From positions 8,942 to 72,941 of the forward strand of contig JBBTSA010000002.1 of the NCBI GenBank assembly GCA_038064895.1: a DNA stretch of 64,000 nt, given 5' to 3'. The notes beneath the pieces were generated by a model. The model was not told where the DNA came from and ran no database searches. It was given only the letters and a program-made list of their open reading frames with translations. The stretch comes from Patescibacteria group bacterium. Lineage in GTDB: Bacteria > Patescibacteriota > Microgenomatia > Daviesbacterales > UBA10151. This document shows positions 2,216 through 62,236 of the stretch, one piece after another. The position numbers and the translations under genes are program-made. Within the stretch, counting starts at the first letter, position 1. Each line of letters opens with the position of its first letter.

Positions 2216-4216
2216 CTACTGTGTTTTACTGTCCCCTGTAACCTGATCACTGTTAACTCCTTTAGGCTTGGTCCAGCTGGCATATTTACATCCCGGCCAG
2301 TTTTTGCAGCCATAAAATGTTTTGCCACGCCTTGTATGCCTAACTACTATATCCCCCCCATCATCTGAACATTTGGCATTTATAAGTTCCTCAATTGCCT
2401 CTGTATGCTTGCAATCAGGAAAGCCAGAACAAGCTAAGAATTTCCCAAATCTTCCAATCCTAACAATTAAATCTTTTCCACACTTAGGGCATTTTTTTCC
2501 TGAATATTCTACAGCCATCTTAACTTTTTCAGCAACTTTTTCAGTTTCATTAAGTTTCTTTTCAAATGGAGTGTAAAAATCCCTTATTGTTGACTTCCAA
2601 TCCCTTGCTCCATTTGCAATATCATCAAGCTCATCTTCCAAGCTTGCTGTAAATGTATAATCAATAATGTCTGGGAAGTATTTTAAAACAAAATCACAAA
2701 CAGCAAAGCCCAAAGTTGTAGGGATAAACTTTCTATCAGTCTTTTCAACATAAAATCTCTCCTGTATTGTGGAAATAATTGGAGCATAAGTTGAAGGTCT
2801 ACCTATTCCTAACTCTTCCAGCTTCTTAATTAAAGATGCCTCATTATATCTAGGTGGAGGTTCAGTGAAGTGTTGGGAAGGCAGAAGCTGAAGTAATTTC
2901 AAAACCTCATTCTCTGAAAGAGGTGGCAATACTTGTTTTTTCTCATTATCAGATTCATCTACATCTTTACCATACAGTTTAAGCCAGCCTTCAAACTTTA
3001 TAACCGATCCAGTTGCTCGAAGCAAATATTCATCAGCTTTCACATCAATTGTGGCCTGATCCATCACCGCCTCATTCATCTGGCAAGCCACAAACCTTTT
3101 CCAAATCAGATCATAAAGTCTGGCGTGATCCCTGTTTAACCCGCCTTGCTCTCTGATATCTGAAGACTGACGACTGATGACTGTTGGTCTAACCGCTTCA
3201 TGAGCCTCCTGAACATTTTTGGATCTGGATTTATAAAACTTAGGTGAAGCCGGAAGGTATGGCTTACCTATTGCATCAGCAATATATGCACGGACCATGC
3301 CTATTGCTTGCGGAGCTATATTAAATGAATCTGTTCTCATATAAGTTATTAATCCATGTTCATACAAGTTCTGTGCAAGCATCATGGTTTTTTTAGCTGT
3401 AAAATGCAGAACATTTGCACCAGCTTGTTGCATTGTTGAAGTTGTAAAAGGAGGGTATGGATATCTCCTAACCTCCTTTTGGGTAATTTTAGCCACAGCG
3501 TATTTCGCTTTTTCCAGATTTTTAACATGCTCATCAGCTTCTTTTTGATTTGTAACTACCAGTTTATTTCCTTCTTTTTCAATTACAACTGCTAAGAATT
3601 TCCCTTTTTCAGCCTCTAACTCAGCTTCAATATTCCAATATTCCTCTGCTTTAAAAGCTGAAACCTCTCTTTCCCTCTCAACAATTAGCCTTAAAGCTAC
3701 AGATTGTACTCTTCCTGCTGATAAACCTCTTTTTACTTTTTGCCAAAGTAGTGGGGACAATTTGTATCCAACAAGTCTATCTAGGACTCTTCTGGCTTGC
3801 TGTGCATCTACGAGTTTTAGGTTAATTTCTCTTGGGTTTTTAAAGGCTTCTTTTATAGCCTCTTCTGTTATTTCATGAAAAACAACTCTTTGAATTTCCG
3901 GACTTTTCCCTTTCCCCTTATCCCTTATCACTTGCCCTAGATGCCATGCTATTGCCTCCCCTTCCCTGTCAGGATCAGTTGCAAGCCACAAAGTTTTTGC
4001 TTCTTTTGCTATTTTTTTTAGTTGGTTTACATTTTTAACTTTATCTCTTGGAATTACATATTGAGGTTCAAAATCATGCTCCAAATCTATCCCAAAATCA
4101 GACTTTGGCAAATCCCTAACATGGCCCATCGAGGCCTCTATCTGATATTTATCCCCCAAAAACTTTGCAAGTGTTTTTGCTTTTGTTGGACTTTCCACCA
4201 CAACAAGATTTTGCAT
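2216..4216 (-). CDS. topA: DNA topoisomerase I
   Basis: 666 aa. N-terminal Toprim LVVVESPTKAKTLAKFLG, conserved core, and C-terminal Zn-ribbon CPKCGKDLIVRIGRFGKFLACSGFPDCKHT. Confidence 0.9.
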   Translation of the reverse strand: MQNLVVVESPTKAKTLAKFLGDKYQIEASMGHVRDLPKSDFGIDLEHDFEPQYVIPRDKVKNVNQLKKIAKEAKTLWLATDPDREGEAIAWHLGQVIRDKGKGKSPEIQRVVFHEITEEAIKEAFKNPREINLKLVDAQQARRVLDRLVGYKLSPLLWQKVKRGLSAGRVQSVALRLIVEREREVSAFKAEEYWNIEAELEAEKGKFLAVVIEKEGNKLVVTNQKEADEHVKNLEKAKYAVAKITQKEVRRYPYPPFTTSTMQQAGANVLHFTAKKTMMLAQNLYEHGLITYMRTDSFNIAPQAIGMVRAYIADAIGKPYLPASPKFYKSRSKNVQEAHEAVRPTVISRQSSDIREQGGLNRDHARLYDLIWKRFVACQMNEAVMDQATIDVKADEYLLRATGSVIKFEGWLKLYGKDVDESDNEKKQVLPPLSENEVLKLLQLLPSQHFTEPPPRYNEASLIKKLEELGIGRPSTYAPIISTIQERFYVEKTDRKFIPTTLGFAVCDFVLKYFPDIIDYTFTASLEDELDDIANGARDWKSTIRDFYTPFEKKLNETEKVAEKVKMAVEYSGKKCPKCGKDLIVRIGRFGKFLACSGFPDCKHTEAIEELINAKCSDDGGDIVVRHTRRGKTFYGCKNWPGCKYASWTKPKGVNSDQVTGDSKTQ

Positions 4217-4276: not shown

Positions 4277-4297
4277 ATCTGGCAGAAGGTGGAATAA
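4277..4297 (+). repeat. 21-bp direct repeat ATCTGGCAGAAGGTGGAATAA (copy 1)
   Basis: Identical 21-mer recurs at 5338-5358, where it encodes the last codons and stop of ORF 4357-5358. Confidence 0.8.
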
Positions 4298-4356: not shown

Positions 4357-5358
4357 ATGATAGAACGTTTCTTGAGAAGAGTGCTGTTTATTAGGAGAAA
4401 TTCAGCCGAGCCTCCTCTTACTAAGAATTTAGTATTGCCTTCAGTTCCGACTCCAGCAGCACCATTTGCAGAGGACTCATCGAAACAATTTCCAGAAGTT
4501 GCAGATCGCGGTTTACGAAATATATTGGCAAACATGAATACCCGTTGTGAATTAGAAATCTATGATTGGCCTATCAGAATAAGAGAATTTTCTAGGGGAT
4601 TGGAACCGGGAGTTGCCTTGAAGCAAATAAAAGCAGAAGAAACTATCAGGTATTTCGCTTCTCACCATTTGGTTGAAACCAGTACGGCGCCTGTTTGGTA
4701 TAAAGGCCAACGAGCATATTGGTTTACAAATGACCAAGTGCTGGCAGCTACTGCGCTATATTACTTTCGGAGAATAGGATTGCCAATGGAAAGGGTGGCA
4801 GAAACAGCGAAGGAAGCCTTAGGTGCCGATCCGCTTGCTGCTCAGATTTATCCAGAAAGTAATGCTCCGATAGTTACTTTCCAGGAACCAGAAGCGCAGA
4901 AGACTGATCCGGACTTTCCTCACTTTATGAACGGTGCCAGGGAGGCATTTGGAAACGTAGAATCCTGGCCTTTATTCAGAAGAGAGCTTGCAATTATCAT
5001 TAGTCAGGTAAGCAGAAGTATGTACGATCGAAGAAGATTTATATTTAATAACCCTTTTGACGCTTTCCATATACATTATCAGCTTGAGCGTTATGCAAAA
5101 TTTGGAGTTATTGTTTTGTCAAAAGCAGAATACCCTGAATGGAAAGGTAGAGATGGAAAACCCCTCCAGGGAGATGTATTTGCTAAAGATGAGGTATTGG
5201 TATCCTGTGCCTTAATTTACTCCTGGTTGAGGATGAGAAATACAGTGCCCCTTGAGGGGATAATTTACAAGGCAAGAAAACTTTTGCAGGATGATCCTAT
5301 CGTACTTTTGATTCATGATCTTCAAAGAGAAAAGCAAATCTGGCAGAAGGTGGAATAA
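4357..5358 (+). CDS. Hypothetical protein (333 aa), visibly GC-richer than flanks
   Basis: Long ORF with coding-like composition and no recognisable motifs. Bracketed by identical 21-bp direct repeats. Confidence 0.5.
   Translation: MIERFLRRVLFIRRNSAEPPLTKNLVLPSVPTPAAPFAEDSSKQFPEVADRGLRNILANMNTRCELEIYDWPIRIREFSRGLEPGVALKQIKAEETIRYFASHHLVETSTAPVWYKGQRAYWFTNDQVLAATALYYFRRIGLPMERVAETAKEALGADPLAAQIYPESNAPIVTFQEPEAQKTDPDFPHFMNGAREAFGNVESWPLFRRELAIIISQVSRSMYDRRRFIFNNPFDAFHIHYQLERYAKFGVIVLSKAEYPEWKGRDGKPLQGDVFAKDEVLVSCALIYSWLRMRNTVPLEGIIYKARKLLQDDPIVLLIHDLQREKQIWQKVE
5338..5358 (+). repeat. 21-bp direct repeat ATCTGGCAGAAGGTGGAATAA (copy 2)
   Basis: Identical to 4277-4297. Overlaps the 3' end of ORF 4357-5358. 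Confidence 0.8.
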
Positions 5359-19599: not shown

Positions 19600-21678
19600 A
19601 TGCTGGATAGGATAATAATCTACTCCTTTTATCTACTTTTTTCCTTAACTCCCCTTTTTTGGACATCATTAAATTTTGAGCTTTTTGAATATAACAAGAT
19701 GCTTTTAGTTTATGGATTAACTGTTGTCATTGTAGGTGCATGGGTTATTAAATCCATAAATCAGAAATCATTCATTATAAATCGAACGCCGCTAGATATC
19801 CCTTTGCTACTTTTTCTTGGAGCAAATATATTATCCACAATATTTTCCATAGATACCCATACCTCAATTTGGGGATATTATTCGCGCTCTAATGGGGGTT
19901 TATTATCCATTATCTCCTACCTTTTATTATACTTTGCTTTTGTTTCAAATTTCCCAAAAGATAAGCTTAAAACCTTATTTAAATTTGCATTAGCATCAGG
20001 CCTAATTATTTCTATATGGGGGATTTTTGAACATTTCGGAGTATCACCATCATGCGTGATTTTAAGGGGTGAGGTTAATGCTTCTTGTTGGGTTCAGGAT
20101 GTCCAAGCAAGGGTCTTTGCAACACTGGGCCAGCCCAATTGGATGGCAGCCTACCTTTCCATGCTTATCTTCCCGGCTCTTTACTTTTTCTTAACTGAAA
20201 AAAACAAACTTCCTTATTACATACTACTTATTACATACTACTTAGCATTTACTTTCACCTATTCTAGGGGGCCTACACTAGGGTTGATAGGTGGGATGGT
20301 TGTTTCCATTCTACTGTCATCCCGACGAATGTCGGGATCCAATTCCGACTCATACATTTTTAATTGGATTCCTGCATTCGCAGGAATGACAAAACAAATG
20401 GTTGTTGTATTAATCTCATTCTTATTTGTCAATGTCCTTTTTGGTTCTGCTCTAACATCCTTCAGGCTTGTTTCCAAATTTGCTACTCCTGCAAGACCCT
20501 CTATTTCTCTCCCAGCTACACCTCAATCAGGTACCCAACTTGAGACCGGGGGCACAGAGTCCGGCCAAATTAGGTTTATTGTTTGGAGAGGAGCCTTGGA
20601 TATATTTAAACACTACCCAATTTTTGGTTCAGGTTTGGAAACCTTTGCCTACTCCTATTATCAATTCAGACTAGCTGCCCACAATTTGGTGTCAGAATGG
20701 GATTTTTTATACAACAAAGCCCATAATGAGTATCTTAATTACCTGGCAACAACTGGAGTTGTGGGATTTGGAACTTATACGTTGGTGATTGGAACCTTTT
20801 TGGTATGGAGCATGAAATATCTCGTCATTGCGAGGAACGAAGTGACGAAGCAATCTGTTTCATTAGCAAGATCGCCACGCCATGTACCAGAGCGGTACAT
20901 GGCTCGCGATGACGTTTTGTTTGTTGTTGCACTTCTTGCCTCCTACATCTCCTACCTTATCTATAACTTCTTCCTCTTTTCAGTTGTCATAATTGCACTC
21001 TTTTTCTATCTTTTCCCTGCTCTTGCCTTTGTTGCAACAGAATCTTTAAAAGTTTTCAGGGTACAGGGCAGCGTTTTGAGTTGGATATATAGAAGACCAA
21101 TGTATACAAGAATTACTAAAGGGCTAATCATACTTATTACCATATACTTACTATTTACTGTCTTTAAAATCTGGTATGCAGATACTTTATTTGCCAAGGG
21201 TGAAAAAGCATCAGATTCAGGAAATCCAGGAAGAGCATATAACTTATTATCTTTGGCAACATCAATAAATCCTTCTGAACCCTTTTTTAGATCCGAGCTT
21301 GCTTATTCTGCTGCTCAAGCTGCTGCAGCCTTAAAAGATGAGGATGCTTCTCGTTCTGCAAGCTTAAAAGATGAAGCAGAGGTAGAAATGTTAAAAGTTC
21401 TAAAATCCAATCCTAATAATGTCTCGTTCTTAAGAAGTGCAATAAGAACCTATTTTGAGTTGTCAGTTTTTGGTAAGGCATATACACAAAAAACGCTTGA
21501 GGCTATAAATAGGGCAACTGGACTTGCACCAACTGATCCAAAGCTTTACTACAACAAGGCTCTGGTTTTGGAATCTGCAGATAAAAAGGATGAATCTTTA
21601 GAGGCTTTAAAAAAGGCATTGGAGCTTAAACCTAATTATTTGGAAGCCAAGGAGCATCTGGATGAAATCAATCGCTAA
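19600..21678 (+). CDS. O-antigen ligase-like polytopic membrane protein with C-terminal TPR repeats, containing two in-frame palindromic-element insertions
   Basis: 692 aa, more than 10 TM helices. AHNEYLNYLATTGVVGF (Wzy_C-type motif). C-terminal TPR-like repeats (KALELKPNYLEAKEHL). Segments SSRRMSGS...IPAFAGMT and VIARNEVTKQS are encoded by repeat elements. Confidence 0.65.
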   Translation: MLDRIIIYSFYLLFSLTPLFWTSLNFELFEYNKMLLVYGLTVVIVGAWVIKSINQKSFIINRTPLDIPLLLFLGANILSTIFSIDTHTSIWGYYSRSNGGLLSIISYLLLYFAFVSNFPKDKLKTLFKFALASGLIISIWGIFEHFGVSPSCVILRGEVNASCWVQDVQARVFATLGQPNWMAAYLSMLIFPALYFFLTEKNKLPYYILLITYYLAFTFTYSRGPTLGLIGGMVVSILLSSRRMSGSNSDSYIFNWIPAFAGMTKQMVVVLISFLFVNVLFGSALTSFRLVSKFATPARPSISLPATPQSGTQLETGGTESGQIRFIVWRGALDIFKHYPIFGSGLETFAYSYYQFRLAAHNLVSEWDFLYNKAHNEYLNYLATTGVVGFGTYTLVIGTFLVWSMKYLVIARNEVTKQSVSLARSPRHVPERYMARDDVLFVVALLASYISYLIYNFFLFSVVIIALFFYLFPALAFVATESLKVFRVQGSVLSWIYRRPMYTRITKGLIILITIYLLFTVFKIWYADTLFAKGEKASDSGNPGRAYNLLSLATSINPSEPFFRSELAYSAAQAAAALKDEDASRSASLKDEAEVEMLKVLKSNPNNVSFLRSAIRTYFELSVFGKAYTQKTLEAINRATGLAPTDPKLYYNKALVLESADKKDESLEALKKALELKPNYLEAKEHLDEINR
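20316..20390. repeat. Palindromic element with terminal inverted repeats GTCATCCC/GGAATGAC, in-frame inside the O-antigen ligase-like CDS
   Basis: gtcatcccgacgaatgtcgggatcc...tcctgcattcgcaggaatgac, with two internal hairpins. Translates to SSRRMSGS...IPAFAGMT inside the ORF. Confidence 0.7.
20824..20911. repeat. Composite palindromic element (GTCATTGCGAG...CGAAGCAATC...CTCGCGATGAC), in-frame inside the same CDS
   Basis: gtcattgcgaggaacgaagtgacgaagcaatc...ccatgtaccagagcggtacatgg...ctcgcgatgac. Encodes LVIARNEVTKQSVSLARSPRHVPERYMARDD. Confidence 0.7.
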
Positions 21679-21925
21679 AGCCATTGCAGAGGTCAAATAC
21701 AAAGATAGGCCCAAAAATATAGCTTATGAGTTCCAGGAATATGGAGTATATTTAGCAGAATCCTTGGATGATACTAAGCATTACTCCCTTTATATAAAGC
21801 TGGCAAAAGAAGTTGACAGAAAGCTTTTAGAAGAAGCCCTAAATTTCACAAAAGGATATTATGGAGCAAAATCAAAAGCAAGAGTATTTATGTGGAGATT
21901 AACCCAACTGCGCAAAGTTAAGTAA
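21662..21925 (+). CDS. Hypothetical protein
   Basis: 87-aa ORF overlapping the preceding gene by 17 nt. No motif. Confidence 0.3.
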   Translation: MKSIAKAIAEVKYKDRPKNIAYEFQEYGVYLAESLDDTKHYSLYIKLAKEVDRKLLEEALNFTKGYYGAKSKARVFMWRLTQLRKVK

Positions 21926-21942
21926 TCTGTTAAAATTGCCTC

Positions 21943-22263
21943 ATGGATATTGTAAAAGCACCTAATCCAGCTTTAAAGGTTCAAACCAAATTGGTTAAAA
22001 AGATCACACCGGGTTTGATTCAAACTCTCAATAATATGATTAAGCTTACCAAAACTTTTAAGGATCCTGAGGGAGTAGGTTTGGCAGCTACTCAGGTGGG
22101 TTTGGATCAATGCTTCTTCGTAGCCAGGCTGCATGATTCAAAACATTCTCCTCCATCAGAACCTGGACAACGTCAAAAAAGATGGAAAAATTACAAAAAA
22201 GATTTTATATCTATTATAAATCCACAAATTTTATCTTTTTCCAAGAAAACCAAAATTACCTAA
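21943..22263 (+). pseudogene. Truncated 5' duplicate of peptide deformylase gene (first ~100 codons only)
   Basis: Translation MDIVKAPNPALKVQTKLVKK...GVGLAATQVGLDQCFFVARLHDSK is ~75% identical to residues 1-100 of def at 23183. Lacks the EGCLS and HEXXH motifs and ends after SFSKKTKIT. Confidence 0.7.
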
Positions 22264-22274
22264 GGGAGATTAAA

Positions 22275-23090
22275 CTAGATACCGCAAACAAGAACTCTAC
22301 CACTGGCATCAAAAAAAGAATCATCTCCATACCCACTAGCTTCAGAATACAAGCTATCGCCAGAATAAAAGTATGGTTGTTCTTGTTCTTTCCCCATTTC
22401 CAAGAGGAGAGCACAACCATTAGATTGATGCAGACCGCTTGTCGCATCACTACCAATTAAGAAAAAATGGTGAAATTCACTGGTCTTAAGATCTGGTCTT
22501 GTAATTGACAAGCCCAAGCCATCCCAATGATTTCCTAATCGCAGATGATCTCCTAAGTATCCACCCCAAATCAATTTTCTTAAGGCTAGGCAATTGACAT
22601 ACCTAGATAAATACCTCCCTTCGAGCAAATCTGTCACATACTCAGGTTCATGATGTTCACCGCGAGCCTGCAATTGTAGTGTTAAAAGACGTTCTTTATT
22701 ATCCCTAATTTCAGTATTGTATTTATCACCTACATGTAACCAGGTACCATATGATTGTTCTGGAAGATTGATACCCCTAGGATCCTGCAATTCTTCTATA
22801 TCTATAGTGGCAAAGGGATAAAGCGGAGGTCGATTAATCTTAAAACCTACAGCCTCAGCTAGTTGCCAAACAGTAACTTGTTCAAATTTTGGAACAAGAA
22901 TAGGTGTATCAACTCCAAGTTCATCAAACTCAGGTTTTCTAGTTGGGAAACCAGCCGGTAAGACTTTAAAACAATCATCCTTATTCATCCCTAAGACTCT
23001 GGTGACACCTTCAAATATCAATTCCCTTTGTATATCAAATTCTTCATTAAGAGGAATATTAGGGTATCTATTTTCTGCATCAATAACCAT
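22275..23090 (-). CDS. Hypothetical protein (271 aa), GC-richer than flanks, inserted between def fragment and intact def
   Basis: Long ORF with His/Glu-rich segments (GEHHEPEY, FHHFFLIGSD) and no family recognised. Composition visibly differs from neighbours. Confidence 0.5.
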   Translation of the reverse strand: MVIDAENRYPNIPLNEEFDIQRELIFEGVTRVLGMNKDDCFKVLPAGFPTRKPEFDELGVDTPILVPKFEQVTVWQLAEAVGFKINRPPLYPFATIDIEELQDPRGINLPEQSYGTWLHVGDKYNTEIRDNKERLLTLQLQARGEHHEPEYVTDLLEGRYLSRYVNCLALRKLIWGGYLGDHLRLGNHWDGLGLSITRPDLKTSEFHHFFLIGSDATSGLHQSNGCALLLEMGKEQEQPYFYSGDSLYSEASGYGDDSFFDASGRVLVCGI

Positions 23091-23182
23091 AGTGGTATTG
23101 ATTCTAGCATATTATAGGACTTTTGTCAAACACCGGAGTTTTTGAAAATGCGAATAGGTAAATTTTTTGTTACAATTCCATC

Positions 23183-23764
23183 ATGTTACAAGTAATCCAT
23201 GCACCTGATCCAAGACTTAAAATTCAAACAAAGTTTGTAAAGAAAATAAATGGCGGTCTTTTAGCTACCTTAAAGGACATGATCAAACTTACTAAAACCT
23301 TTAAAGATCCGGAGGGAGTTGGTTTGGCAGCAACACAGGTTGGGCTTGATGAACGCTTTTTTGTAGCCAGATTACATGATTCTAAACAAATCCCTCCATC
23401 AAATCCAACCCAGCGAAGGGAAAGGTGGAAAAACTATAAAAAAGACTTTGTTGCAATTATCAATCCTAAAATTTTGTCATATTCTAAGCGTATCAAGCCT
23501 TATTTTGAGGGATGTTTATCCATTCCGACAATATGGGGTCAGGTTAAACGTCATACATCCGTAAAAGTATCTTATCAGGATGAAAAGGGTAATAATATTA
23601 AAAAAACCTTAAAAGGTATTCCTGCTTGGATATTTCAACATGAAGTTGATCATCTGGATGGGATACTGTTCACAGAAAGAGTCTTGCAGCAAAAAGGGGA
23701 GTTTTATAAATTCAAAGGCAAAGATAAAACAGGAACGGATGTATTTGAAGAAATTACATTATGA
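23183..23764 (+). CDS. def: Peptide deformylase
   Basis: 193 aa. GVGLAATQVG, EGCLSIP and QHEVDHLDG motifs. Confidence 0.9.
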   Translation: MLQVIHAPDPRLKIQTKFVKKINGGLLATLKDMIKLTKTFKDPEGVGLAATQVGLDERFFVARLHDSKQIPPSNPTQRRERWKNYKKDFVAIINPKILSYSKRIKPYFEGCLSIPTIWGQVKRHTSVKVSYQDEKGNNIKKTLKGIPAWIFQHEVDHLDGILFTERVLQQKGEFYKFKGKDKTGTDVFEEITL

Positions 23765-24687
23765 AAACACAACATCCACAAATTATTCATCCCGGTCAGA
23801 CTGTTTTCTTAAGAGAAGACTTAGATGTCAAAAAGTATCTGGTGAAAATACCTAGGCAGAATATAGAGATTGTATTTTTTGGATCAGATAGCTGGTCTAT
23901 CCATGTTCTTAAAACATTAGAAGATAATTTTGATGTTAAAGCTGTAGTTACTGCACCAGATTCTGCTGTAGCTAACCATTTTAAAGGCCCTGTACTCACT
24001 CCAGACACACTTGATGAGGCTTTTCTTACTACCAACTACCAACTACTAACTACTAACTTATTTATAGTAGCATCATATGGGAAAATCATACCAAAAGCCA
24101 TCTTAAATATTCCAAAATACGGTGCCCTAAATGTCCATCCATCTCTTTTACCCAAATATAGAGGTCCATCCCCCGTGCCTGCAACTATTTTAAATGGAGA
24201 CAAAGTTACAGGGGTAACTATTATTAAAATGGATGAGAAAATGGACCATGGACCTATTGTTGCAGTAAAGAAGATTAGATTAACAGGACGGGAAATTTTC
24301 CCGGATTTGATCAATAAATTGTTTCAACTTGGAGGAGAACTTCTAGTTAAAATTATCCCAGATTATATTACGGGAAAAATAAAACCTCTTGGACAAAATC
24401 AAGCAATGGCTGTATTTTGTCCAAGACTTAGCAGAAAAAGTGGCTATTTTGATATTGAAAAACCTCCATCCCCTGAAATGTTGGACAGGATGATTCGGGC
24501 CTACTATCCTTGGCCGGGAGTTTGGACCCGCTTTCGCCCTTCGGGTTCCAGTGGGCAAGCCCGCATTGTAAAATTCTTACCTGGAGGAATGCTACAAATG
24601 GAAGGCAAAAAGCCAATATCTTTTAAAGACTTCCTAAACGGCTACCCGGATTTTCTTTTAAAAAGTATTACTCTTGACAAAAAGTAA
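23761..24687 (+). CDS. fmt: Methionyl-tRNA formyltransferase
   Basis: 308 aa. Formyltransferase N-domain (NVHPSLLPKYRGPSPV) plus C-terminal domain. Overlaps def stop (ATGA). Confidence 0.9.
   Translation: MKTQHPQIIHPGQTVFLREDLDVKKYLVKIPRQNIEIVFFGSDSWSIHVLKTLEDNFDVKAVVTAPDSAVANHFKGPVLTPDTLDEAFLTTNYQLLTTNLFIVASYGKIIPKAILNIPKYGALNVHPSLLPKYRGPSPVPATILNGDKVTGVTIIKMDEKMDHGPIVAVKKIRLTGREIFPDLINKLFQLGGELLVKIIPDYITGKIKPLGQNQAMAVFCPRLSRKSGYFDIEKPPSPEMLDRMIRAYYPWPGVWTRFRPSGSSGQARIVKFLPGGMLQMEGKKPISFKDFLNGYPDFLLKSITLDKK
24625..24655 (+). repeat. 31-bp direct repeat AAAGACTTCCTAAACGGCTACCCGGATTTTC (copy 1, inside fmt 3' end)
   Basis: Perfect 31-mer repeated at 25344-25374. The two copies bracket the AbrB/PIN cassette. 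Confidence 0.85.
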
Positions 24688-24702
24688 TACTTATGGTATC
24701 TT
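24664..24702 (+). promoter_or_regulatory. Promoter-like TTGACA-17-TATCTT embedded in a 9-bp inverted repeat AGTATTACT/AGTAATACT upstream of the AbrB-type antitoxin
   Basis: ttgaca at 24674-79 and tatctt at 24697-702. The perfect inverted repeat flanking the -35 box suggests an autoregulatory operator. Confidence 0.4.
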
Positions 24703-24711
24703 GGTATTACT

Positions 24712-24972
24712 ATGTATAATGTATACACTTCCACTTTAACTTCTAAAGGTCAGGCTACAATTCCAGCTCCTGTTAGACGTAGGCTTGGCTTTAGACCAGG
24801 GCAAAAAATTATCTTTGCCGAAAAAGGTGGTAACATCTACATAAGCTCAGCTGTGGATTTATCAGAACTTAGGGGCTCTTTAAAACCTAAAGTTAAAACT
24901 AAATATAGCGATAAAAAGGCTGATGAAACTATTGGTAGAATGTTTGCTGCTGAATATGCCAAAACTCGTTGA
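24712..24972 (+). CDS. AbrB/SpoVT/MazE-type antitoxin
   Basis: 86 aa. TSKGQATIPAPVRRRLGFRPGQKI is the swapped-hairpin AbrB-type signature. Overlaps the downstream PIN gene. Confidence 0.6.
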   Translation: MYNVYTSTLTSKGQATIPAPVRRRLGFRPGQKIIFAEKGGNIYISSAVDLSELRGSLKPKVKTKYSDKKADETIGRMFAAEYAKTR

Positions 24973-25345
24973 CACGAATTTAATAGTCCGTTTTCTACTT
25001 AATGATAATCCGCAACAAGCCTTAGCTTCCGAAAAAGTTTTTAAACAGTCTTCCGATTTGGTTATTACTGATATTGCTGTCGCAGAAACAGTTTGGACTC
25101 TTCAATCCTTCTACGGCTTCTCAAGACAAGAAATCGTTGAAAAAATTTTTAAATTTCTCCAGTCTAAAAACTTCATTTGTAATCAAGAACTCCTCTTTAA
25201 CAGTCTTTTCTTATACCTAAACCATAATATTTCTTTTGTAGATGCTTATTTTGCAGCTTACGCGGAAATTGAAAAATTAGAAGGTATTTATTCTTTTGAT
25301 GAGGGGTTGGATAAAATTAAAACTATAAAAAGATTCAAACCCTAA
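24956..25345 (+). CDS. PIN-domain toxin (VapC-like)
   Basis: Starts MPKLVDTNLIVRFLLND (PIN N-terminal Asp motif). The track ORF 24923 is an upstream extension. Overlaps the antitoxin gene by 17 nt. Confidence 0.65.
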   Translation: MPKLVDTNLIVRFLLNDNPQQALASEKVFKQSSDLVITDIAVAETVWTLQSFYGFSRQEIVEKIFKFLQSKNFICNQELLFNSLFLYLNHNISFVDAYFAAYAEIEKLEGIYSFDEGLDKIKTIKRFKP

Positions 25346-26601
25346 AGACTTCCTAAACGGCTACCCGGATTTTCCAATACAACACATCGCCTAGAAGCTC
25401 TTGCTCTTTCTATCTCCCCAGCAGCAATTAAACGCTGTCTAGACTTTTTAACCTTATCTTCTGTCGCATCAAGCAAATCTGCAATTTGTACATTAGAAAG
25501 TTTTTCACCTGGGTTCATTAACGCAGCTACTTTTGTATCACGCTCATTAATCACCTCAGGCAGAGGTTGTCTCCTTTCCACTTTCTTTTTAGGTAGTAAA
25601 CGTCTACTGATAGAATTTTTAACAGAAGATTCTAAGACGTCAAGCAAATCTGCAATTTGAGGTACGGAATATGTACCTGATCTTCTCAAACTTTCTACTT
25701 CCACATCAAGTACAAGGTTGGCGGTACTAACTGGTCTGCCTGCTGTTCTCCTTTCTACTCTCCCCTCAGCAATTAGGTGCTGCAGAGAATATCTGACAGA
25801 CCCTAAATTCCTACTGACTTTTACTGCAATCTGCGGGTTAGAATAACCTTCTCTCCTTAAATCTATTATATTCCTATCATTTGGTATGATTCCAAAATAA
25901 TGCTCAAGTTCTGTTGCTTCAGATGTATCAAAATAGTAATAATGCCCCAGATTTCTTCTCCTGTGGTGCACATTAAATCCGTAGTCACGTAAATGCTGAA
26001 AAAGCTCTGCCAGAGATTTTGGGGATTTTCTCCCCAAATCATGAAGTACTAAACGAAGTGGCTTAAACGGAGGACTCCAAAGTTTTGGCCAGGACGGCTC
26101 TCTATCAGTCTCCTGGACTGGAATTTCGGGCAATTCAGGAATGGGGAACCCTGCTGCCATTAAAGCTCTGCGTCTTGGCGACATTAAATATGGCTTATGC
26201 CCAAATTTGATTGCTACTTCCTTTGAAGTGGCTCCTGCTAAAAAATCACGCACTATCAGAATAACCGAATCCATTCTCCATCCATGTTCAGGAAAAATTT
26301 TTCTCACAACAGCTACTAAAGGTGCCCTCTCAACTTGCCTTACTCTCAAACCAACTGATTGTCTAATATTTCCTGTTGCTCTAGCAATTTCACTTAAGCT
26401 ATACCCATTAGCATACAAAAAACTCTCTGTCTCTCTTGTAGTAACGCAGGCTGTTCTTAAACGCATTAGCTTCTCATGCAATGGCATCCAACCACTAATA
26501 GTAGTATTAATACCCAAGTGGGCACCTAGCTTTGCATAAGGAGACTCGCCTATTAGGTCAAGTCTAAATGAGTTAGCGTCTACTTGTTCTGCTTGAACCA
26601 T
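25342..26601 (-). CDS. Protein with four tandem sigma-70 region-4/LuxR-like HTH repeats, GC-richer
   Basis: 419 aa. Repeated motifs YSLSEIARATGNIRQSVGLR, YSNPQIAVKVSRNLGSVRYSL, YSVPQIADLLDVLESSVKNSI, LSNVQIADLLDATEDKVKKSR. The 3' end lies inside the 31-bp repeat copy 2. Confidence 0.5.
   Translation of the reverse strand: MVQAEQVDANSFRLDLIGESPYAKLGAHLGINTTISGWMPLHEKLMRLRTACVTTRETESFLYANGYSLSEIARATGNIRQSVGLRVRQVERAPLVAVVRKIFPEHGWRMDSVILIVRDFLAGATSKEVAIKFGHKPYLMSPRRRALMAAGFPIPELPEIPVQETDREPSWPKLWSPPFKPLRLVLHDLGRKSPKSLAELFQHLRDYGFNVHHRRRNLGHYYYFDTSEATELEHYFGIIPNDRNIIDLRREGYSNPQIAVKVSRNLGSVRYSLQHLIAEGRVERRTAGRPVSTANLVLDVEVESLRRSGTYSVPQIADLLDVLESSVKNSISRRLLPKKKVERRQPLPEVINERDTKVAALMNPGEKLSNVQIADLLDATEDKVKKSRQRLIAAGEIERARASRRCVVLENPGSRLGSL
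25344..25374 (+). repeat. 31-bp direct repeat AAAGACTTCCTAAACGGCTACCCGGATTTTC (copy 2)
   Basis: Identical to 24625-24655. Encodes the C-terminus (ENPGSRLGSL) of the minus-strand HTH-repeat gene. Confidence 0.85.
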
Positions 26602-43674: not shown

Positions 43675-46017
43675 ATGAAAAAACTGCTTTTCTTATTTCT
43701 ACTTATGGTATTCCCCTTTTTGATGAGTCCGTCTTTCGCATATGGGCAAAGGCAAGAAGTTGACTGTACTATTGCGCAGTCAGCAGTAGGTACTGTTTCG
43801 GACTTATACCAGTGTTCAGGCGGTATTGCCTGCTATAACGACTTCGATTTTATTGTAGAAGGCAACAAATGTTTTAAAGAACCACGGCAAGGAGACTTTG
43901 ATGGTGGACGTTACCATTGTGATACCCAAGCTGATGCTCCTTTTATTGATCCAAGGAATGGTTCTAGAACTACAGTAGGTGCAATTTGCACAGGTGCAGG
44001 GCTTAATTTATCAGCTTCAAGTAAAGCTCTTGAGAATTGCCACATTGAGTACGATAAAGAAAAACAGGAAGGCACGTTTTTTGCAAAGGCCAGTTCTTTT
44101 AGTGGTCCGGTAATCTTTGAACGATTCGAAACACTACCAAACGGACAGGAGGTTGAAATTGCAAAAGATCTTGCAAAATTGAGTTTTACAAATAATGAAT
44201 TGCGTCGCTCCTTCAACCCAGCCCCTGATATCCTCAGAACAAGAGTGGTACTCTATCCTGTGGAAACCAATACTGCTCCGGATGCTGAGCTTTGTACAGC
44301 AAAACATGAGTTTGTTGTGGATAATAGTACTCAAGCAGAAGGTCCTTCTGAACCCGAACCAGCTGCTCCAAGACCTGTTGTTGCCCTACCTTCTGTTATT
44401 GAAATGGTAATTGATAGGTTGGATACTCAAGGAGCTGATAAAGTTGAGGAAAGGGTGGTAGAAGGATTTGAATATAGAGGTGGTGAAGAAGTAAATATCA
44501 CTGCATTTTTGTATGGCAAAGCAGATGAAGCAAAAATTTATGCAGACCCCGCAAAATTAGCTGCAGGCAGATGTATACCAACAGATACTTCTTTAATCTG
44601 GAAGCTTGATGGAAAAGAAATTACAAATGACCAGGTAGTTAGTAATGAATTTGGAGGCAAATCAGTCCTAAAACAAGCCTGTCAACACTTTATTCTAAAA
44701 ATGCCTACAGAATCGGGAGCTCACAACCTATCTGTTGCTCTACCCAATGATGAAAATTATTTGAAAGCTGCAGAACACATACACAGATTCCGAATTAAAG
44801 CTCCTGAACAAACCAGGTCAACAGTGGAGGTTACAGGCTCACCTAATGTATCATCCAGTAGTGTACGGGGTGTAGCCACTTCTTCTGCCAAGCTTAAGAA
44901 AAACAGCATTAAACGTTTGTCTCTTTCAAAAATACTTGAAAAAGATGTAGCAGGAGTTTCTGTTGAGAATTTAGGGGAAAACAGATACTCTGTTCAATCC
45001 ACACCAGTTGGAGATAATTTAATTTATGTTAATCCCTGTACTACTTCTTTAGAATCATCTGATAAGCCTGACTTTACCTTTTTAACACTAAGAAAAGTTG
45101 ATGAGGATAGATCTTCTGAAATTTTGCCCCAGAGCGGAAAAGTTGATAATTGTGAGATACAACCAATAGATTTAGGAGATATTGATGATATGAAGTATCT
45201 GGCAATTGATGTTCACTTTGATCCAGAAGGCTCTTACGAATTTGCTCCATCCAAATCAGAAGATGTAATTATTTATACAGAAGATGAAGAACTTAATTTA
45301 GCAAATGAACCGCTCTTTGTTAAGTTAAAAACAGATCCGGAAATTATTGGTGCTGATGATCGTGAAGTTGAAATCATTGCAATCAGTAACAGACCAATTG
45401 ATGACCCTACTTTTTATGTTAATAGTGGGGGTAGATCTGCAGAATATATTGATTCTGATTGCACAGAAGGAGGAAATTGCGAATACCATATAACTGTTAT
45501 TACTGAATCTAATACAAACTATAATATTGAATTTGCATCTAAATCAATTAGATTCTCAACCGGAGAACTAGAAATTCCAGATGAATCTCAGCCAGAAGAA
45601 CCCCAATCTGGGGAACGTAACGTAACTAATGTTTCAGTATTTATCAATGGTGATGAAATACCCATTTCTGATCCTAACATTACTGTTCAAAGCCCTGGAA
45701 CAGTTCTTATTAGGGTTACCTTTAGTGATGGAGATACGGAATCCATACTTTTGAATCTACAAAGAGGTTCAGGGGAACCAGGGCCTACAGAAGAACCTGG
45801 ACCCACAGAAGAACCCCAGCCTACGGATGAACCACAACCTACAGAGGAACCTTCCCCTACACCATTTCCAACAACTCAATGCCCTGCAGATTGTAATGCT
45901 TATGGAGATGAATGCTGGAGAGGACCAGTAGGGAAAGTTGATGATGAGTGTCCAGAAGATTATACTGATCTTGATGATCCTGGTACAGGATGCTGGGGAA
46001 GATGTGAAGTATTATGA
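43675..46017 (+). CDS. Large secreted protein (780 aa) with Pro/Glu/Thr linker and Cys-rich C-terminal module
   Basis: Signal peptide MKKLLFLFLLMVFPFLMSPSFAYGQ. EPGPTEEPGPTEEPQPTDEPQPTEEPSPTP linker. C-terminal CPADCNAYGDECWRGPVGKVDDECPEDYTDLDDPGTGCWGRCEVL. Confidence 0.55.
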   Translation: MKKLLFLFLLMVFPFLMSPSFAYGQRQEVDCTIAQSAVGTVSDLYQCSGGIACYNDFDFIVEGNKCFKEPRQGDFDGGRYHCDTQADAPFIDPRNGSRTTVGAICTGAGLNLSASSKALENCHIEYDKEKQEGTFFAKASSFSGPVIFERFETLPNGQEVEIAKDLAKLSFTNNELRRSFNPAPDILRTRVVLYPVETNTAPDAELCTAKHEFVVDNSTQAEGPSEPEPAAPRPVVALPSVIEMVIDRLDTQGADKVEERVVEGFEYRGGEEVNITAFLYGKADEAKIYADPAKLAAGRCIPTDTSLIWKLDGKEITNDQVVSNEFGGKSVLKQACQHFILKMPTESGAHNLSVALPNDENYLKAAEHIHRFRIKAPEQTRSTVEVTGSPNVSSSSVRGVATSSAKLKKNSIKRLSLSKILEKDVAGVSVENLGENRYSVQSTPVGDNLIYVNPCTTSLESSDKPDFTFLTLRKVDEDRSSEILPQSGKVDNCEIQPIDLGDIDDMKYLAIDVHFDPEGSYEFAPSKSEDVIIYTEDEELNLANEPLFVKLKTDPEIIGADDREVEIIAISNRPIDDPTFYVNSGGRSAEYIDSDCTEGGNCEYHITVITESNTNYNIEFASKSIRFSTGELEIPDESQPEEPQSGERNVTNVSVFINGDEIPISDPNITVQSPGTVLIRVTFSDGDTESILLNLQRGSGEPGPTEEPGPTEEPQPTDEPQPTEEPSPTPFPTTQCPADCNAYGDECWRGPVGKVDDECPEDYTDLDDPGTGCWGRCEVL

Positions 46018-46256
46018 ATATAGCAGGTTATCAAATTAGCAAAATACAAGCTTTTACAATAGGATTTTTACTAGTAGGCATTATTATCGGAGTCTTTTTA
46101 GTACAAAGACAACAAACTTTAAAAAGTAAAGCCAGTGAAGAGCTCTACAATAAAATTAATGTCCGGGATGCAGAGTGTTTTGGTGAAGGTAGCTCTTATA
46201 CCTGCCGGACTCAATCTGATCAAGTTGAAATAGATATAAGCAATCTACTCCCTTAA
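46014..46256 (+). CDS. Small single-pass membrane protein with conserved LVQ(R/K)xQ juxtamembrane motif and Cys pair (paralogue of 50651-50923)
   Basis: 80 aa. ISKIQAFTIGFLLVGIIIGVFLVQRQQTLKSKA is ~60% identical to ISKKQAIITLILLLGIVFGVILVQKPQIFKGRA of the other copy. ATGA overlap with the preceding giant gene. Confidence 0.55.
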   Translation: MNIAGYQISKIQAFTIGFLLVGIIIGVFLVQRQQTLKSKASEELYNKINVRDAECFGEGSSYTCRTQSDQVEIDISNLLP

Positions 46257-46273
46257 TCCAATACCACCCAGCC

Positions 46274-46302
46274 TCAGCCACAAAAAATACAACAACAAAT
46301 TA
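46274..46302 (+). repeat. att-like copy 3 (CAGCCACAAAAAATACAACAACAAATTAG)
   Basis: In-frame SATKNTTTN* again. Preceded by ACCACCCAGCCTC, a 13-mer that recurs at 51786-51798. Confidence 0.65.
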
Positions 46303-46327
46303 GCCAAGTTTAAGTCCTGCCAATTTT

Positions 46328-46960
46328 TTAGATCTTAAATTTAACCTTTGCTAGCTTTATAGTCTGCTCTTGAAAGAATTTTTTAACCTCATCCCAGGAA
46401 ACAGAAATTAACATTTTGGGAGGTTCCTGAGAATCTGCATCTGCAAAGTAATCCAGACTCCTCATAATATGGACAATATTGTTGGAAAGTTTACCGTATT
46501 TTTGTTCATAAAACTTTAAAATTTGTTCCAGGGAAAATTTTTTAACCAAAAAATAAAGGTCAATAAAATCTCTTTTTGTGCCTCGGCTTGAGATAGCATC
46601 AATTTTCATAGCAGCAATATCTTCCAGAGATGCCAGATTAATCTTAGAAAAGACAGATGTTTTTTTAATTAGTGGATATCTGTAATAAAAATAGCTGAAC
46701 TTAACTTTTGGGAAACTACCCAAAATAGTCCATTTTGCTGTTTCATCTAATTTAAATCCAGGTAACTTTTCGAGCTGTTCTAAAACATCTTCTGTATTGA
46801 ATTCAATGTTCGTAAAAAAATCAAGGTCTAAAGATATGCGGTGTCCAATCTGAAGCGCGCAAGATGTGCCTCCGGCAAGGTATGTATCTTTAAGAATCCC
46901 TGACTCTCCTAATAAGGCCAAAGCTCCTGCCGCATTTTTAGATAAGGTTTTTGTAAACAT
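46328..46960 (-). CDS. Nucleotidyltransferase AbiEii/AbiGii-family toxin (type IV TA / abortive infection)
   Basis: 210 aa. YLAGGTSCALQIGHRISLDLDFF matches the AbiEii GGTAL...R.S.DLDF signature. Confidence 0.7.
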   Translation of the reverse strand: MFTKTLSKNAAGALALLGESGILKDTYLAGGTSCALQIGHRISLDLDFFTNIEFNTEDVLEQLEKLPGFKLDETAKWTILGSFPKVKFSYFYYRYPLIKKTSVFSKINLASLEDIAAMKIDAISSRGTKRDFIDLYFLVKKFSLEQILKFYEQKYGKLSNNIVHIMRSLDYFADADSQEPPKMLISVSWDEVKKFFQEQTIKLAKVKFKI

Positions 46961-47688: not shown

Positions 47689-48186
47689 GTGAGACAAAAA
47701 CTGCTTATAGTAGGTTACATTACTTTGCTCATCACCATTCCTATTACTTTTTATTTATTTAAAGATCAAATCAGATCTAGCTTTCTTAAACCTAAAGTTT
47801 CAATCCAGCCAAAACTTATTAGAGAAACTACAATCGCTGAGGTTGCAGCAAAGTCCCACCCCAGCCTCTTTTATGCAGATTTGGAATATGATCCGAATAC
47901 AGAAGCAGTAGCGTTAAGAGAAACATCTGTAGGTCGCGGTGACCCTCCATCACTTTTTCCTGATAAACCACCCGATGATAATAATCGTTTATCTTTCAAG
48001 GTGGAAGTTGTGTCAAAGGAAAATATTGTCCTTCAAAGCGGCTGGTATTCTGATTATAAACAAAAAGTAAAGCCAAAAGAGGGTTTGCTTAGATTCTCTG
48101 TGGTAACAGGGTATGAACCCGGAGCTATTGTAAAACTCTATTATCCTAATGAGAGTAAGCTTATCTGGCTTGGGAAAATACAATGA
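47689..48186 (+). CDS. Membrane-anchored hypothetical protein (165 aa), first gene of the second surface-protein cassette
   Basis: N-terminal TM LLIVGYITLLITIPITFYLF. Overlaps the downstream giant gene (ATGA). Confidence 0.45.
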   Translation: MRQKLLIVGYITLLITIPITFYLFKDQIRSSFLKPKVSIQPKLIRETTIAEVAAKSHPSLFYADLEYDPNTEAVALRETSVGRGDPPSLFPDKPPDDNNRLSFKVEVVSKENIVLQSGWYSDYKQKVKPKEGLLRFSVVTGYEPGAIVKLYYPNESKLIWLGKIQ

Positions 48187-50663: not shown

Positions 50664-50923
50664 AAGAATATATTAAAAATTTAAGGATCAGCAAAAAACA
50701 AGCTATTATTACTTTGATTCTGCTTTTGGGTATTGTCTTTGGTGTGATTTTAGTGCAAAAACCCCAGATTTTTAAAGGAAGGGCAGATGTTGATATATCT
50801 TCTGCTCTAAATATCCAAGGAACAGGTGGTGAGGCGGTTAAGTGTGTACAACAGACCTGTACTACCAAAGCAGAAGAAGTAACTATTGAAGTCAAAGATC
50901 CTGATATATTCCTTAAGGATTAA
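50651..50923 (+). CDS. Small single-pass membrane protein, paralogue of 46014-46256
   Basis: 90 aa. ...GIVFGVILVQKPQIFKGRADV then a Cys pair (KCVQQTC). Overlaps the end of the giant gene by 13 nt. Confidence 0.55.
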   Translation: MYTMKEYIKNLRISKKQAIITLILLLGIVFGVILVQKPQIFKGRADVDISSALNIQGTGGEAVKCVQQTCTTKAEEVTIEVKDPDIFLKD

Positions 50924-54245: not shown

Positions 54246-54251
54246 GAATTG

Positions 54252-54359
54252 ACCTAATTGATCTAATTAACCTAATTTCTAAACAAATCCCAATGACTAA
54301 TTTTGGAAATTGGTGCTTAAGTCATTGTTTAGGTCAATTAGAAATTAGAAATTAGAAAT
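54252..54359 (+). repeat. ~110-bp AT-rich repeat element (copy 1), ends 22 nt before rplK start. Inverted partner at 62041-62157.
   Basis: ~85% identical to the reverse complement of 62041-62157. Contains the internal inverted repeat CAATGAC...GTCATTG and tandem AATTAGAAATT units. Confidence 0.75.
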
Positions 54360-54380
54360 TCAAGATTAAATGGAATAAAT

Positions 54381-59714: not shown

Positions 59715-60131
59715 ATGAACAATGGTAAAAAGGTACTGCTTATTGAAGATGAATTCTTCATAAGTGACTTATACAAACATATTTTATCCGATGCAGGAAT
59801 TAGGGTAGAAGTAGCAGAAGATGGTGAGCAGGCTTTACAAAAATCAAAGGCTGATAATATTGGTTTAATACTGTTGGATATCATGCTGCCAGGGCTTAAT
59901 GGCATTGAAGTTTTAAAAAAATTAAAAGAAGATCCCCTGTACCGAACAATTCCTGTTGTGCTTCTTACAAATTTAGTACAATCATCTGTTGTGAAACTTG
60001 CTTATAACCTAGGAGCTTCCGGATATCTTTTAAAGGTCAGTTTAAAACCAGAGGACCTTGTAAGATGTGTTCAAGATTATTTCAAAAACCCAAATCTCAA
60101 GATGAGGTATGAGACTTTGGATTTGGATTAG
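59715..60131 (+). CDS. Single-domain response regulator (CheY-like receiver only)
   Basis: 138 aa. LLIEDEF...D(57) in LILLDIMLPGLNG...KVSLK. No output domain. Confidence 0.8.
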   Translation: MNNGKKVLLIEDEFFISDLYKHILSDAGIRVEVAEDGEQALQKSKADNIGLILLDIMLPGLNGIEVLKKLKEDPLYRTIPVVLLTNLVQSSVVKLAYNLGASGYLLKVSLKPEDLVRCVQDYFKNPNLKMRYETLDLD

Positions 60132-60137
60132 CCAATC

Positions 60138-60545
60138 ATGGATAAAAAAATACTTTTGATTGAGGATGATGATTTAATAAGACAGCTTTATGCGGATCAG
60201 ATGAGGGCAGCTGGCTTAGAAGTTTTTGATTTCCCTGATGGAAAATCAGGGCTTGCGGCCTTAAGACAGCAAAAGTATGACCTTATACTTTTGGATATAA
60301 TGCTTCCTGACATCAATGGTTTGGAAATTTTAAAGCAAATTAAACAAGATAATGGATTAAAATCCATCCCTGTTGTGCTTCTTACAAATTTAGGACAGGA
60401 TACTATTATAAAGGAAGGATTTAAACTGGGAGCTGATGCATATCTTATAAAGCTTGCTTATAATACTGACCAGATTATAACAGAGGTTAAAAATATATTA
60501 GCAGGCCAAATGCCCCAAAAACCCCAAGAGTTGACCCCGATTTAA
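60138..60545 (+). CDS. Single-domain response regulator (receiver only), paralogue of previous
   Basis: 135 aa. ILLIEDDD...LILLDIMLPDINGLEILKQIK...PVVLLTNLGQD. Confidence 0.8.
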   Translation: MDKKILLIEDDDLIRQLYADQMRAAGLEVFDFPDGKSGLAALRQQKYDLILLDIMLPDINGLEILKQIKQDNGLKSIPVVLLTNLGQDTIIKEGFKLGADAYLIKLAYNTDQIITEVKNILAGQMPQKPQELTPI

Positions 60546-61805: not shown

Positions 61806-62042
61806 ATGGCAGATAAATTATCACTTGAGAATCTCCCTGACCTTTTAACTGTTAGAGAAGTTGCTGAAGTTTTAAGGGTCTCCCCTTTAACCATCAAGAG
61901 ATGGGGTAAAAGAGGAAAACTCCCTGCAATAAGAATAAATTCCAGAGGAGATAGAAGATATAAGAAAGAAGCCGTGCTATGGTTACTAGGAATAACTCAG
62001 AAAAACACCGGAACTGAATCAAGTACACCAACCACCTATTAA
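61806..62042 (+). CDS. Excisionase-family / MerR-like HTH DNA-binding protein
   Basis: LLTVREVAEVLRVSPLTIKRWGKRGKLPAIRINSRGDRRYKKEAV matches the excisionase-family HTH pattern. Preferred start is MADKLS at 61806. Confidence 0.55.
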   Translation: MADKLSLENLPDLLTVREVAEVLRVSPLTIKRWGKRGKLPAIRINSRGDRRYKKEAVLWLLGITQKNTGTESSTPTTY

Positions 62043-62157
62043 ATTTCTAATTACTAATTTCTAATTGACCTAAATAATGACTTAATGTCTAATGTCCCAA
62101 TTTAGTCATTTGGTCATTGGGATTTGATTAGAAATTAGGTTAATTAGGTTAATTAGG
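62041..62157 (-). repeat. ~110-bp AT-rich repeat element (copy 2, inverted relative to 54252-54359)
   Basis: Reverse complement aligns at ~85% identity with copy 1, including the CAATGAC/GTCATTG hairpin and AATTAGAAATT units. Confidence 0.75.
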
Positions 62158-62236
62158 GCAATTTAGCACTTTACTACTCTATTCTGCTAATTACCGATGA
62201 ATATGTTGTCCTAAAGCCAAATCCGCCAGCAGCGGA

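Follow-up and report, generated by a model that had tools for sequence, protein, structure and literature searches.

Why should a streamlined genome carry, directly upstream of an essential operon, a second and truncated version of the beginning of its first gene? The question is raised by a 64,000-nucleotide stretch of contig JBBTSA010000002.1 (hereafter the window, 64 kb), which belongs to a metagenome-assembled genome (MAG) of Candidatus Daviesbacteria (Patescibacteria) from Hainich groundwater. Here the first part of the peptide deformylase gene, def, lies upstream of the intact def-fmt operon, and a gene on the opposite strand, orf271, is the sole gene in the insert between the two def copies. 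We propose that this arrangement is probably the scar of a recent horizontal acquisition, left by a one-off recombination with foreign Daviesbacteria DNA. The anatomy of the locus, the orthologue-type divergence of its two def copies, the freshness of the fragment, its position in an insertion hot spot and the lack of recognisable integration machinery can be observed directly, and it is from these that we infer the recombination route.

The truncated copy (21943-22263, forward strand) encodes 106 amino acids, consisting of 104 deformylase residues followed by Ile-Thr and a stop codon. It matches the Pfam family Pep_deformylase (PF01327, E=8.7e-14) over profile positions 3-88 of 156, in agreement with the sequence-only reading of this open reading frame (ORF) as an N-terminal deformylase piece that then stops. 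Seventy-five of its 104 residues are identical to residues 2-105 of the intact protein (72%, E=1e-56), making the pair the only strong internal protein duplication in the window. An identity of about 75% was first claimed for both protein and nucleotides, but the DNA is only 68% identical in codon register. Motif 1 of the enzyme (G-phi-G-phi-AAxQ) is kept in the fragment as GVGLAATQVG, and the metal-binding motifs 2 (EGCLS) and 3 (HEXXH) are absent; homology ends at Lys104 (about 22254 in the fragment and 23497 in the intact gene), right before EGCLS, and the ORF closes with SKKTKIT, just short of YFEGCLS. Because it ends before the metal-binding motifs, the fragment cannot act as a deformylase. 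The intact gene (23183-23764, forward strand, 193 amino acids) has all three catalytic motifs, including EGCLS and QHEVDH, and matches Pep_deformylase over profile positions 2-153 of 156 (E=6.8e-43); its duplicated part, residues 2-105, spans 23186-23497. The fmt gene (23761-24687, forward strand; Pfam Formyl_trans_N and Formyl_trans_C) overlaps the def stop codon to form the def-fmt operon. Only the downstream copy runs on into the catalytic half of def, and on these sequence features def-fmt is predicted to be still functional.

The repeat extends beyond the coding sequence. Similarity between the copies begins about 38 nucleotides (nt) 5' of the ATG, where 21903-21942 and 23143-23182 are identical at 26 of 40 positions, a level reached by none of 9137 random windows. 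The duplicated segment therefore takes in the promoter of def and, probably, the final codons of the conserved gene to its left, hyp87. In the left copy (21903-21942, forward strand), the last codons and stop of hyp87 are followed by the extended -10 element TGTTAAAAT (21928-21936), which stops 6 nt short of the ATG. In the right copy (23143-23182, forward strand), a decayed stretch resembling the hyp87 tail is followed by the extended -10 element TGTTACAAT (23168-23176), again 6 nt short of the ATG. The motif TGTTA(A/C)AAT is conserved 5' of def in relatives. The position of this box 6 nt before the start codon (21928-21942, 23168-23182, and likewise in relatives) leaves no room for a Shine-Dalgarno sequence, and a -10 box so close to the ATG suggests that def mRNA is leaderless in Daviesbacteria. 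The cargo gene of one comparison locus, L058, likewise has TATAAT 6 nt ahead of its ATG. A sequence shared upstream of the cargo in the window and in L058, ATATTATAGGA, is merely the TATAAT -10 box read on the other strand.

The two def copies differ mainly at synonymous sites, and their replacement sites are conserved: 73% of first, 90% of second and 40% of third codon positions agree, with a proportion of nonsynonymous differences (pN) of 0.19 and a saturated synonymous proportion (pS) of 0.81. When set against 67 distinct Daviesbacteria deformylases (orthologues), the fragment agrees with all 32 columns whose conservation is 90% or more, and mismatches 5 of the 53 whose conservation is 70% or more, the same count as for intact def. 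It contains no internal stop codon and no frameshift. Because both copies carry the clade-specific insertion LHDSK..RWKNY, their sequences place them in the same Daviesbacteria subclade. The orthologue-type divergence and the lack of decay in the fragment together argue that the copies are two orthologous versions from different Daviesbacteria lineages, each of which diverged within a functional def, and that they were joined recently. The same figures, namely 40% identity at third positions beside 90% at second positions and no change at the 32 most conserved columns, lead us to reject the duplication followed by insertion that had been offered as one account of the layout. No deformylase more than about 72% identical to the full fragment was found among 5.8 billion clustered proteins. 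Metagenome contigs from JGI hold no full-length match above 71%; a match at a contig end (L103) reaches 76% over the first 54 residues only.

To place this arrangement among its relatives, we retrieved 41 genome loci and 54 metagenome loci (designated by L numbers); the survey covers about 93 related loci, and L001 and L002 are two extra assemblies of the same organism. The gene order Wzy-hyp87-def-fmt-(mazE-PIN)-M50 is common to nearly all retrieved loci. The order Wzy-hyp87-def-fmt-M50 is conserved across the surveyed loci, and the def fragment and any homologue of orf271 are absent from all of them. Neither a second def N-terminal piece nor a pair of full def paralogues, from which simple decay of one copy could have been read, occurs among these loci. 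An apparent split and partial duplication of def in the public MAG L014 (6211-6311) proved to be a run of N at a scaffold gap, an assembly artefact and not an insertion.

The same survey shows that the junction itself is busy. The left flank, hyp87 (21662-21925, forward strand), is a conserved gene of 87 amino acids with no match in Pfam or PHROG, which shows 59-87% identity among Daviesbacteria and in nearly all of their loci directly precedes def. Unrelated cargo of more than 300 nt, and up to 3 kb, occupies the junction of hyp87 and def in 25 of 64 non-redundant loci (approximately 40%), and includes, besides a recurrent family of about 225 amino acids, secreted Cys-rich or dockerin proteins, helix-turn-helix (HTH) proteins and toxin-antitoxin pairs. 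None of the ten larger cargo proteins that we scanned contains a recombinase domain. The site is an insertion hot spot, within which the def fragment is a one-off. In six cargo-free loci (L010, L012, L031, L032, L039 and L042), tandem remnants of the hyp87 3' end (...LMW(K/R)L..LK...) lie just past the real stop codon, which suggests repeated end replacement or cargo loss at the hot spot. The family of about 225 amino acids is found at the junction in at least five species, always on the reverse strand (L025 5205-5843, L041 4400-5071, L069 925-1602, L080 4224-4943, L091 1412-2101). Its members in L069 and L080 have no Pfam match, and a relationship to orf271 was rejected (hhalign probability 0.1%).

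The cargo of the present locus, orf271 (22275-23090, reverse strand; NCBI AAB414_00205), encodes 271 amino acids and belongs to a small uncharacterised family of about 250 amino acids. As the sequence-only reading had it, a real gene lies on the minus strand between the copies; it has its own strong promoter-like site (23101-23129, reverse strand), in which TTGACA and TAGAAT are separated by 17 nt, with a TG, and 11 of 12 positions match the consensus in a consensus scan. The accompanying description of the gene as GC-richer is marginal: its G+C content of 38.6% exceeds the 35% of its flanks but not appreciably the window mean of 38.3%, and its third-position G+C content is like that of its neighbours. 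By these measures orf271 is not compositionally foreign. A word-indexed protein search returned orf271 itself alone; an exhaustive search recovered 15 remote homologues of about 250 amino acids at 32-45% identity over the matched stretches, and no homologue above 45% identity was found among 15 billion proteins. The protein has no match in Pfam, PHROG, PADLOC or NCBIfam, nor to a PDB sequence profile, and its AlphaFold model (predicted local distance difference test score, pLDDT, 63) gave no fold match in PDB and BFVD. The better model of the homologue P0010 (pLDDT 88) had as its top PDB match the C-terminal domain of Bd2740, which was not significant (E=0.22). Neither family libraries nor fold searches gave signs of a nuclease or recombinase in orf271 or its family, and nothing suggests that orf271 catalysed its own insertion. 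The homologues lie on short contigs from groundwater or similar sources, with varying neighbours (HisRS, Nramp, LysM proteins) and no recombinase beside them on those contigs. In two unrelated contigs, a remnant of the 3' end of an orf271-family gene follows that gene (L046 823-934 and 1256-1367; L048 1175-1285 and 1544-1654); these remnants are 111-112 nt long, 80-81% identical and 370-430 nt downstream. In a third contig (L050), the 3' end of the orf271-family gene recurs behind it as a 21-nt perfect repeat (3523-3543 and 3652-3672), and L046 seems to carry a second family member downstream.

How might the two versions of def have been brought together? We envisage a donor from another Daviesbacteria lineage, in which orf271 would already have occupied the hyp87/def hot spot, and whose DNA would have recombined into the present genome. 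One end of the exchange would have been resolved through homology inside or near def, and the other end joined illegitimately. Alternatively, a single crossover between the chromosome and a circularised fragment bearing one copy of the repeated segment may have led to the same product. That product, as found in the window, reads hyp87, promoter and def 1-104, orf271 on the reverse strand, hyp87-tail remnant with promoter and def 1-105, and the rest of def. A donor with orf271 in the hot spot would account for the decayed hyp87-tail remnant beside the imported promoter. The foreign DNA between the junctions would be orf271, which no related locus contains. Competence and homologous-recombination genes have been reported for Patescibacteria, for the phylum in general (PMC12455944), and it is well established that incoming DNA can integrate by homology at one of its ends and illegitimately at the other (PMC3240628).

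The intact def itself may bear some trace of such an exchange. L058 is the nearest locus for its residues 1-60 and its promoter (80-93% in sliding windows), including 24 of 26 identical positions in the right-copy promoter stretch, and its residues 91-193 are closest to L008 (88%). A maximum chi-square test with this pair of loci places a breakpoint near residue 90, with a permutation p=0.005 on amino acids and p=0.055 on nucleotides; three other locus pairs gave p=0.007-0.047 on amino acids and p=0.13-0.75 on nucleotides. The sequence-only reading of an insertion that displaced the original def 5' end while bringing a replacement fits this anatomy and finds some support in the mosaic signal, but the direction is undecided between the copies. 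We somewhat favor, over the reverse, a native upstream fragment that was displaced and an imported 5' part in the downstream copy. Identity-profile correlations across the flanking genes are too noisy to assign a native copy in this mosaic region.

Several points weigh against a recombination scar of this kind. Neither protein searches nor metagenome contigs yielded a donor or a relative with an empty site. The mosaic signal is not significant on nucleotides (p=0.055 to 0.75), and it could have arisen because L008 or L058, and not the present genome, underwent recombination. The nearest relatives of the flanking genes conflict, with fmt and M50 pointing to L006/L009 and hyp87 and the C-terminal part of def pointing to L008/L003, so that "native" is itself poorly defined in a mosaic region. 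A RecA-type crossover between versions that are 68% identical in DNA would be very inefficient. Finally, the intact frame of 106 codons and its own promoter could mean that the fragment has been kept by selection.

The roles of the two copies might also be exchanged. The intact def, its promoter and the hyp87-tail remnant would then be native, and the fragment would be a foreign passenger that travelled with orf271, as part of a circle or fragment acquired through imprecise excision in an earlier host, with the crossover at the hyp87 3' end. Such a crossover would lie at the usual position of the hot spot, in the hyp87 3' end or the intergenic region, where the tail remnants of the six cargo-free loci are found. 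The fragment has no relative closer than 72% whereas the N-terminal part of intact def reaches 80-81% in L058, and the right-copy promoter is the one that matches L058, the left-copy intergenic region looking more like the L006/L009/L021 type. However, the earlier host would need to have had orf271 joined to a truncated def, and hyp87 leads into the fragment with a normal tail and a normal 17-nt spacing. Ahead of intact def, the remnant of the hyp87 tail has decayed and lost its frame, and the fragment is pristine, which fits the remnant as older imported DNA better, and the breakpoint signal near residue 90 would be left unexplained. We consider this version of events unlikely, if deserving of serious attention. 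Selection for the fragment as a functional short protein, for example as a ribosome-binding or regulatory N-terminal deformylase domain, would agree with its intact frame, its own extended -10 promoter and the retention of its conserved residues. Yet the fragment is confined to this organism among the loci surveyed and lacks two of the three catalytic motifs, and a recent event would explain its freshness equally well; a selected function seems to us very unlikely.

A site-specific integrative element that targets def, supplies a surrogate 5' end and depends on an integrase encoded elsewhere would produce the same layout as e14 at icd in E. coli K-12, and the two def ends, like those of icd, differ chiefly at synonymous positions. 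In two species, described below, mazE-PIN lies behind fmt between perfect repeats of 32-37 nt of the fmt 3' end, which also look like attachment (att) sites. But orf271 and its family have no recombinase domain or fold, the cargo at the hot spot in other species is likewise without a recombinase, and the def site is used in none of the other loci. Nor do the borders share an identical core: the copies agree exactly over 11 nt at most, in the interior (22078/23321), and identity at the right border is 47%. Such an element is improbable, in our estimate. In-place tandem duplication of the segment from the hyp87 tail to def codon 104, after which orf271 would have entered at the junction and the upstream copy decayed, would explain why the copies are direct repeats with the same left and right limits. 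It would require a redundant copy decaying neutrally, which is not what the saturated synonymous sites and conserved replacement sites indicate; neutral decay would not leave second positions 90% identical or the fragment free of stops, frameshifts and conserved-column changes, and no relative has two copies. We regard this course of events as highly improbable. An assembly artefact that fused two strain variants of def has to be entertained for a metagenome-assembled genome in a recombinogenic region, but is scarcely credible here: the layout of fragment, orf271 and def is identical in three independent assemblies, namely the NCBI MAG, the ENA assembly Hain_H51 (a 12-kb contig) and the Logan assembly, copies at 68% identity are too far apart for strain collapse, and an unrelated gene of 816 nt with its own promoter lies between them.

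A recombination scar at def shares features with several known systems. At the 3' end of icd in E. coli, e14 and phage 21 supply a substitute gene end, which keeps the gene complete, and leave the native end as a fragment (icdC) on the far side, as may have happened at def. We checked e14 and found the last 165 nt of icd to be prophage-borne, with icdC and icd 92.7% identical in nucleotides, 80% at codon position 3 and 98-100% at positions 1 and 2, so that substitute and displaced ends differ mainly synonymously there as well. The differences are considerable: e14 is a 15-kb element with IntE, XisE and an 11-nt identical core at its junctions, whereas the def insert has about 1.2 kb, one gene, no integrase and no core; e14 duplicates a 3' end and the present locus a 5' end; and the def copies are far more diverged, at 68% nucleotide identity. 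About 100 kb in size, SXT is conjugative, encodes a tyrosine recombinase and integrates time and again at a core site of 17 bp. As Hochhut and Waldor are said to have found in 1999, SXT/R391 integrates at the 5' end of prfC and brings an element-borne promoter and 5' coding sequence. Replacement of the 5' end of a housekeeping gene would be common to prfC and def, but neither the size, nor the recombinase, nor the reused core of SXT is seen at def.

Homology-facilitated illegitimate recombination, described in Acinetobacter, Streptococcus and Pseudomonas (PMC3240628), resembles the proposed event in having a homology anchor at one end, an illegitimate junction at the other and no need for element machinery. 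It would suit a single occurrence in bacteria that are believed to be competent (PMC12455944). It is known, however, with much closer homology at the anchor and usually with deletion of recipient DNA, whereas def keeps a 340-nt duplicate, and the experiments that describe it were made outside Patescibacteria. Among tycheposons, remnants consist of integrase-less cargo whose borders are marked by partial repeats of the target gene. The tycheposon islands of Prochlorococcus resemble the hyp87-def junction in that different genomes carry different cargo at one core-gene junction (bioRxiv 10.1101/2020.12.28.424599). The islands are built by identifiable recombinase-bearing elements at tRNA or other sites, and none was found at hyp87-def.

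The sequence-only reading had also reported the same pattern at fmt, PBP1A, topA and the ORF at 4357. Repeats do exist at all four, but they are short, and none is like the long, diverged 5' duplication of def: those at fmt, PBP1A and topA copy the 3' end of the conserved gene, and the ORF 4357 repeat copies its own 3' end. Such 3'-end repeats occur at 4 of 70 genes in the window against 0 of 70 mid-gene controls, a control count that sets aside the def pair and a pair of tandem paralogues (59715-60131 and 60138-60545). The clearest case is the mazE-PIN cassette (24624-25374, forward strand), whose genes (24712-25345) lie between two perfect direct copies, 32 nt each, of the end of fmt (24624-24655 and 25343-25374) that encodes KDFLNGYPDF. 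The same arrangement in L035 has a perfect repeat of 37 nt (4400-4436, 5156-5192) around MazE and PIN proteins that are only 45-49% identical to those of the window, and in L009, L018 and L040 the cargo is followed by a second, diverged fmt end. The identity of the 32-nt repeat in the window and L035 has a rough p of about 0.02, given strong codon preference at KDFLNGYPDF, and is not proof of an att site. Where the cassette is present, fmt tends to have a longer tail, KSITLDKK, and where it is absent fmt ends in PDFP(I/L)Kxx, so that the cassette seems to supply an fmt tail of its own. Beyond it, the 419-amino-acid protein with multiple HTH domains (25342-26601, reverse strand; sigma-70 region 4 or HTH_23-like, 41% G+C) has no counterpart in any related locus. 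The reverse complement of the second fmt-end repeat encodes the final 10 codons and stop of this protein (ENPGSRLGSL*), and the ORF appears to run into that remnant.

At PBP1A (38192-40576), the 3' end (40529-40575) is repeated 387 nt downstream at 40916-40962 (47 nt, 85%), and a third, partial copy lies 5.3 kb further (46277-46311). Two small membrane ORFs separate the first and second copies, and a PP2C-domain protein and a 780-amino-acid secreted protein separate the second and third, which looks like serial insertion at one gene end. The last approximately 35 nt of topA (2216-4216, reverse strand) are tandemly repeated across and past the stop codon (2187-2220 and 2225-2258; 34 nt, 82%), with no cargo between. 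A perfect 21-nt repeat, ATCTGGCAGAAGGTGGAATAA (4277-4297 and 5338-5358), forms in one copy the 3' end of the orphan ORF 4357-5358 and in the other lies 60 nt before its start, adjoining the start of topA. Taken with the cassette at fmt, these repeats support a general habit in which cargo travels with a piece of the adjoining conserved gene, and def would be its long, 5'-end and highly diverged extreme.

One could go further, and suppose that Patescibacteria gain genes by a general route without integrases, of which the def fragment would be the largest footprint to be seen, an idea that we hold only tentatively and think doubtful. Small cassettes would pass from species to species with part of the conserved gene next to them attached, and re-insert through that part, leaving cargo between two versions of the gene end. 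Possible footprints are def, fmt and PBP1A, each with cargo between two versions of a gene end; topA (tandem, with no cargo) and ORF 4357 are less clear. Others may lie behind fmt, at its 3' end, in four or more further species of Daviesbacteria, in the hyp87-tail remnants of six species and after orf271-family genes. If such footprints are systematic, the route would explain active hot spots in genomes with few mobile-element genes.

The wider neighbourhood offers further observations. Genes are ordered locally as a PaaX/Cas2-like gene, the Wzy-type O-antigen ligase (19600-21678), hyp87, the def fragment, orf271 (reverse strand), def, fmt, mazE-PIN, the 419-amino-acid HTH protein (reverse strand) and the M50 peptidase; an Rfam scan of the region returned tRNAs and no other RNA family. 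Within the Wzy ORF and in frame, an imperfect palindrome of about 77 nt (20315-20391; 30-nt arms, 80% complementary), translated as ...NWIPAFAGMTKQ..., looks like a small palindromic repeat element inserted in the coding region, and a similar-looking peptide (ARNEVTKQS...SPRHVPERYMARDD) follows about 450 nt beyond. Farther along the window, inverted repeats of 75-80 nt (54247-54363 and 62039-62163; 81-85% complementary) bracket a gene block 7.7 kb apart. Two large proteins with no Pfam match (43675-46017 and 48183-50663) are each followed by a short ORF (46008-46253 and 50624-50920); the short ORFs share weak protein similarity (33% over 78 amino acids), and an AbiEii toxin gene (46328-46960, reverse strand) lies between the two large proteins.

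In summary, we regard the truncated def as a well-preserved recombination scar of a known kind beside an essential operon, and not as a new system. On this account, a streamlined genome of the Candidate Phyla Radiation recently took in DNA from a lineage approximately 30% diverged from it, and insertions at a busy gene junction leave behind remnants of gene ends without a recognisable integrase. A survey of such gene-end remnants could measure how, and how often, Patescibacteria gain genes, and could flag the families that travel as cargo, among them the orf271 family and the family of about 225 amino acids.

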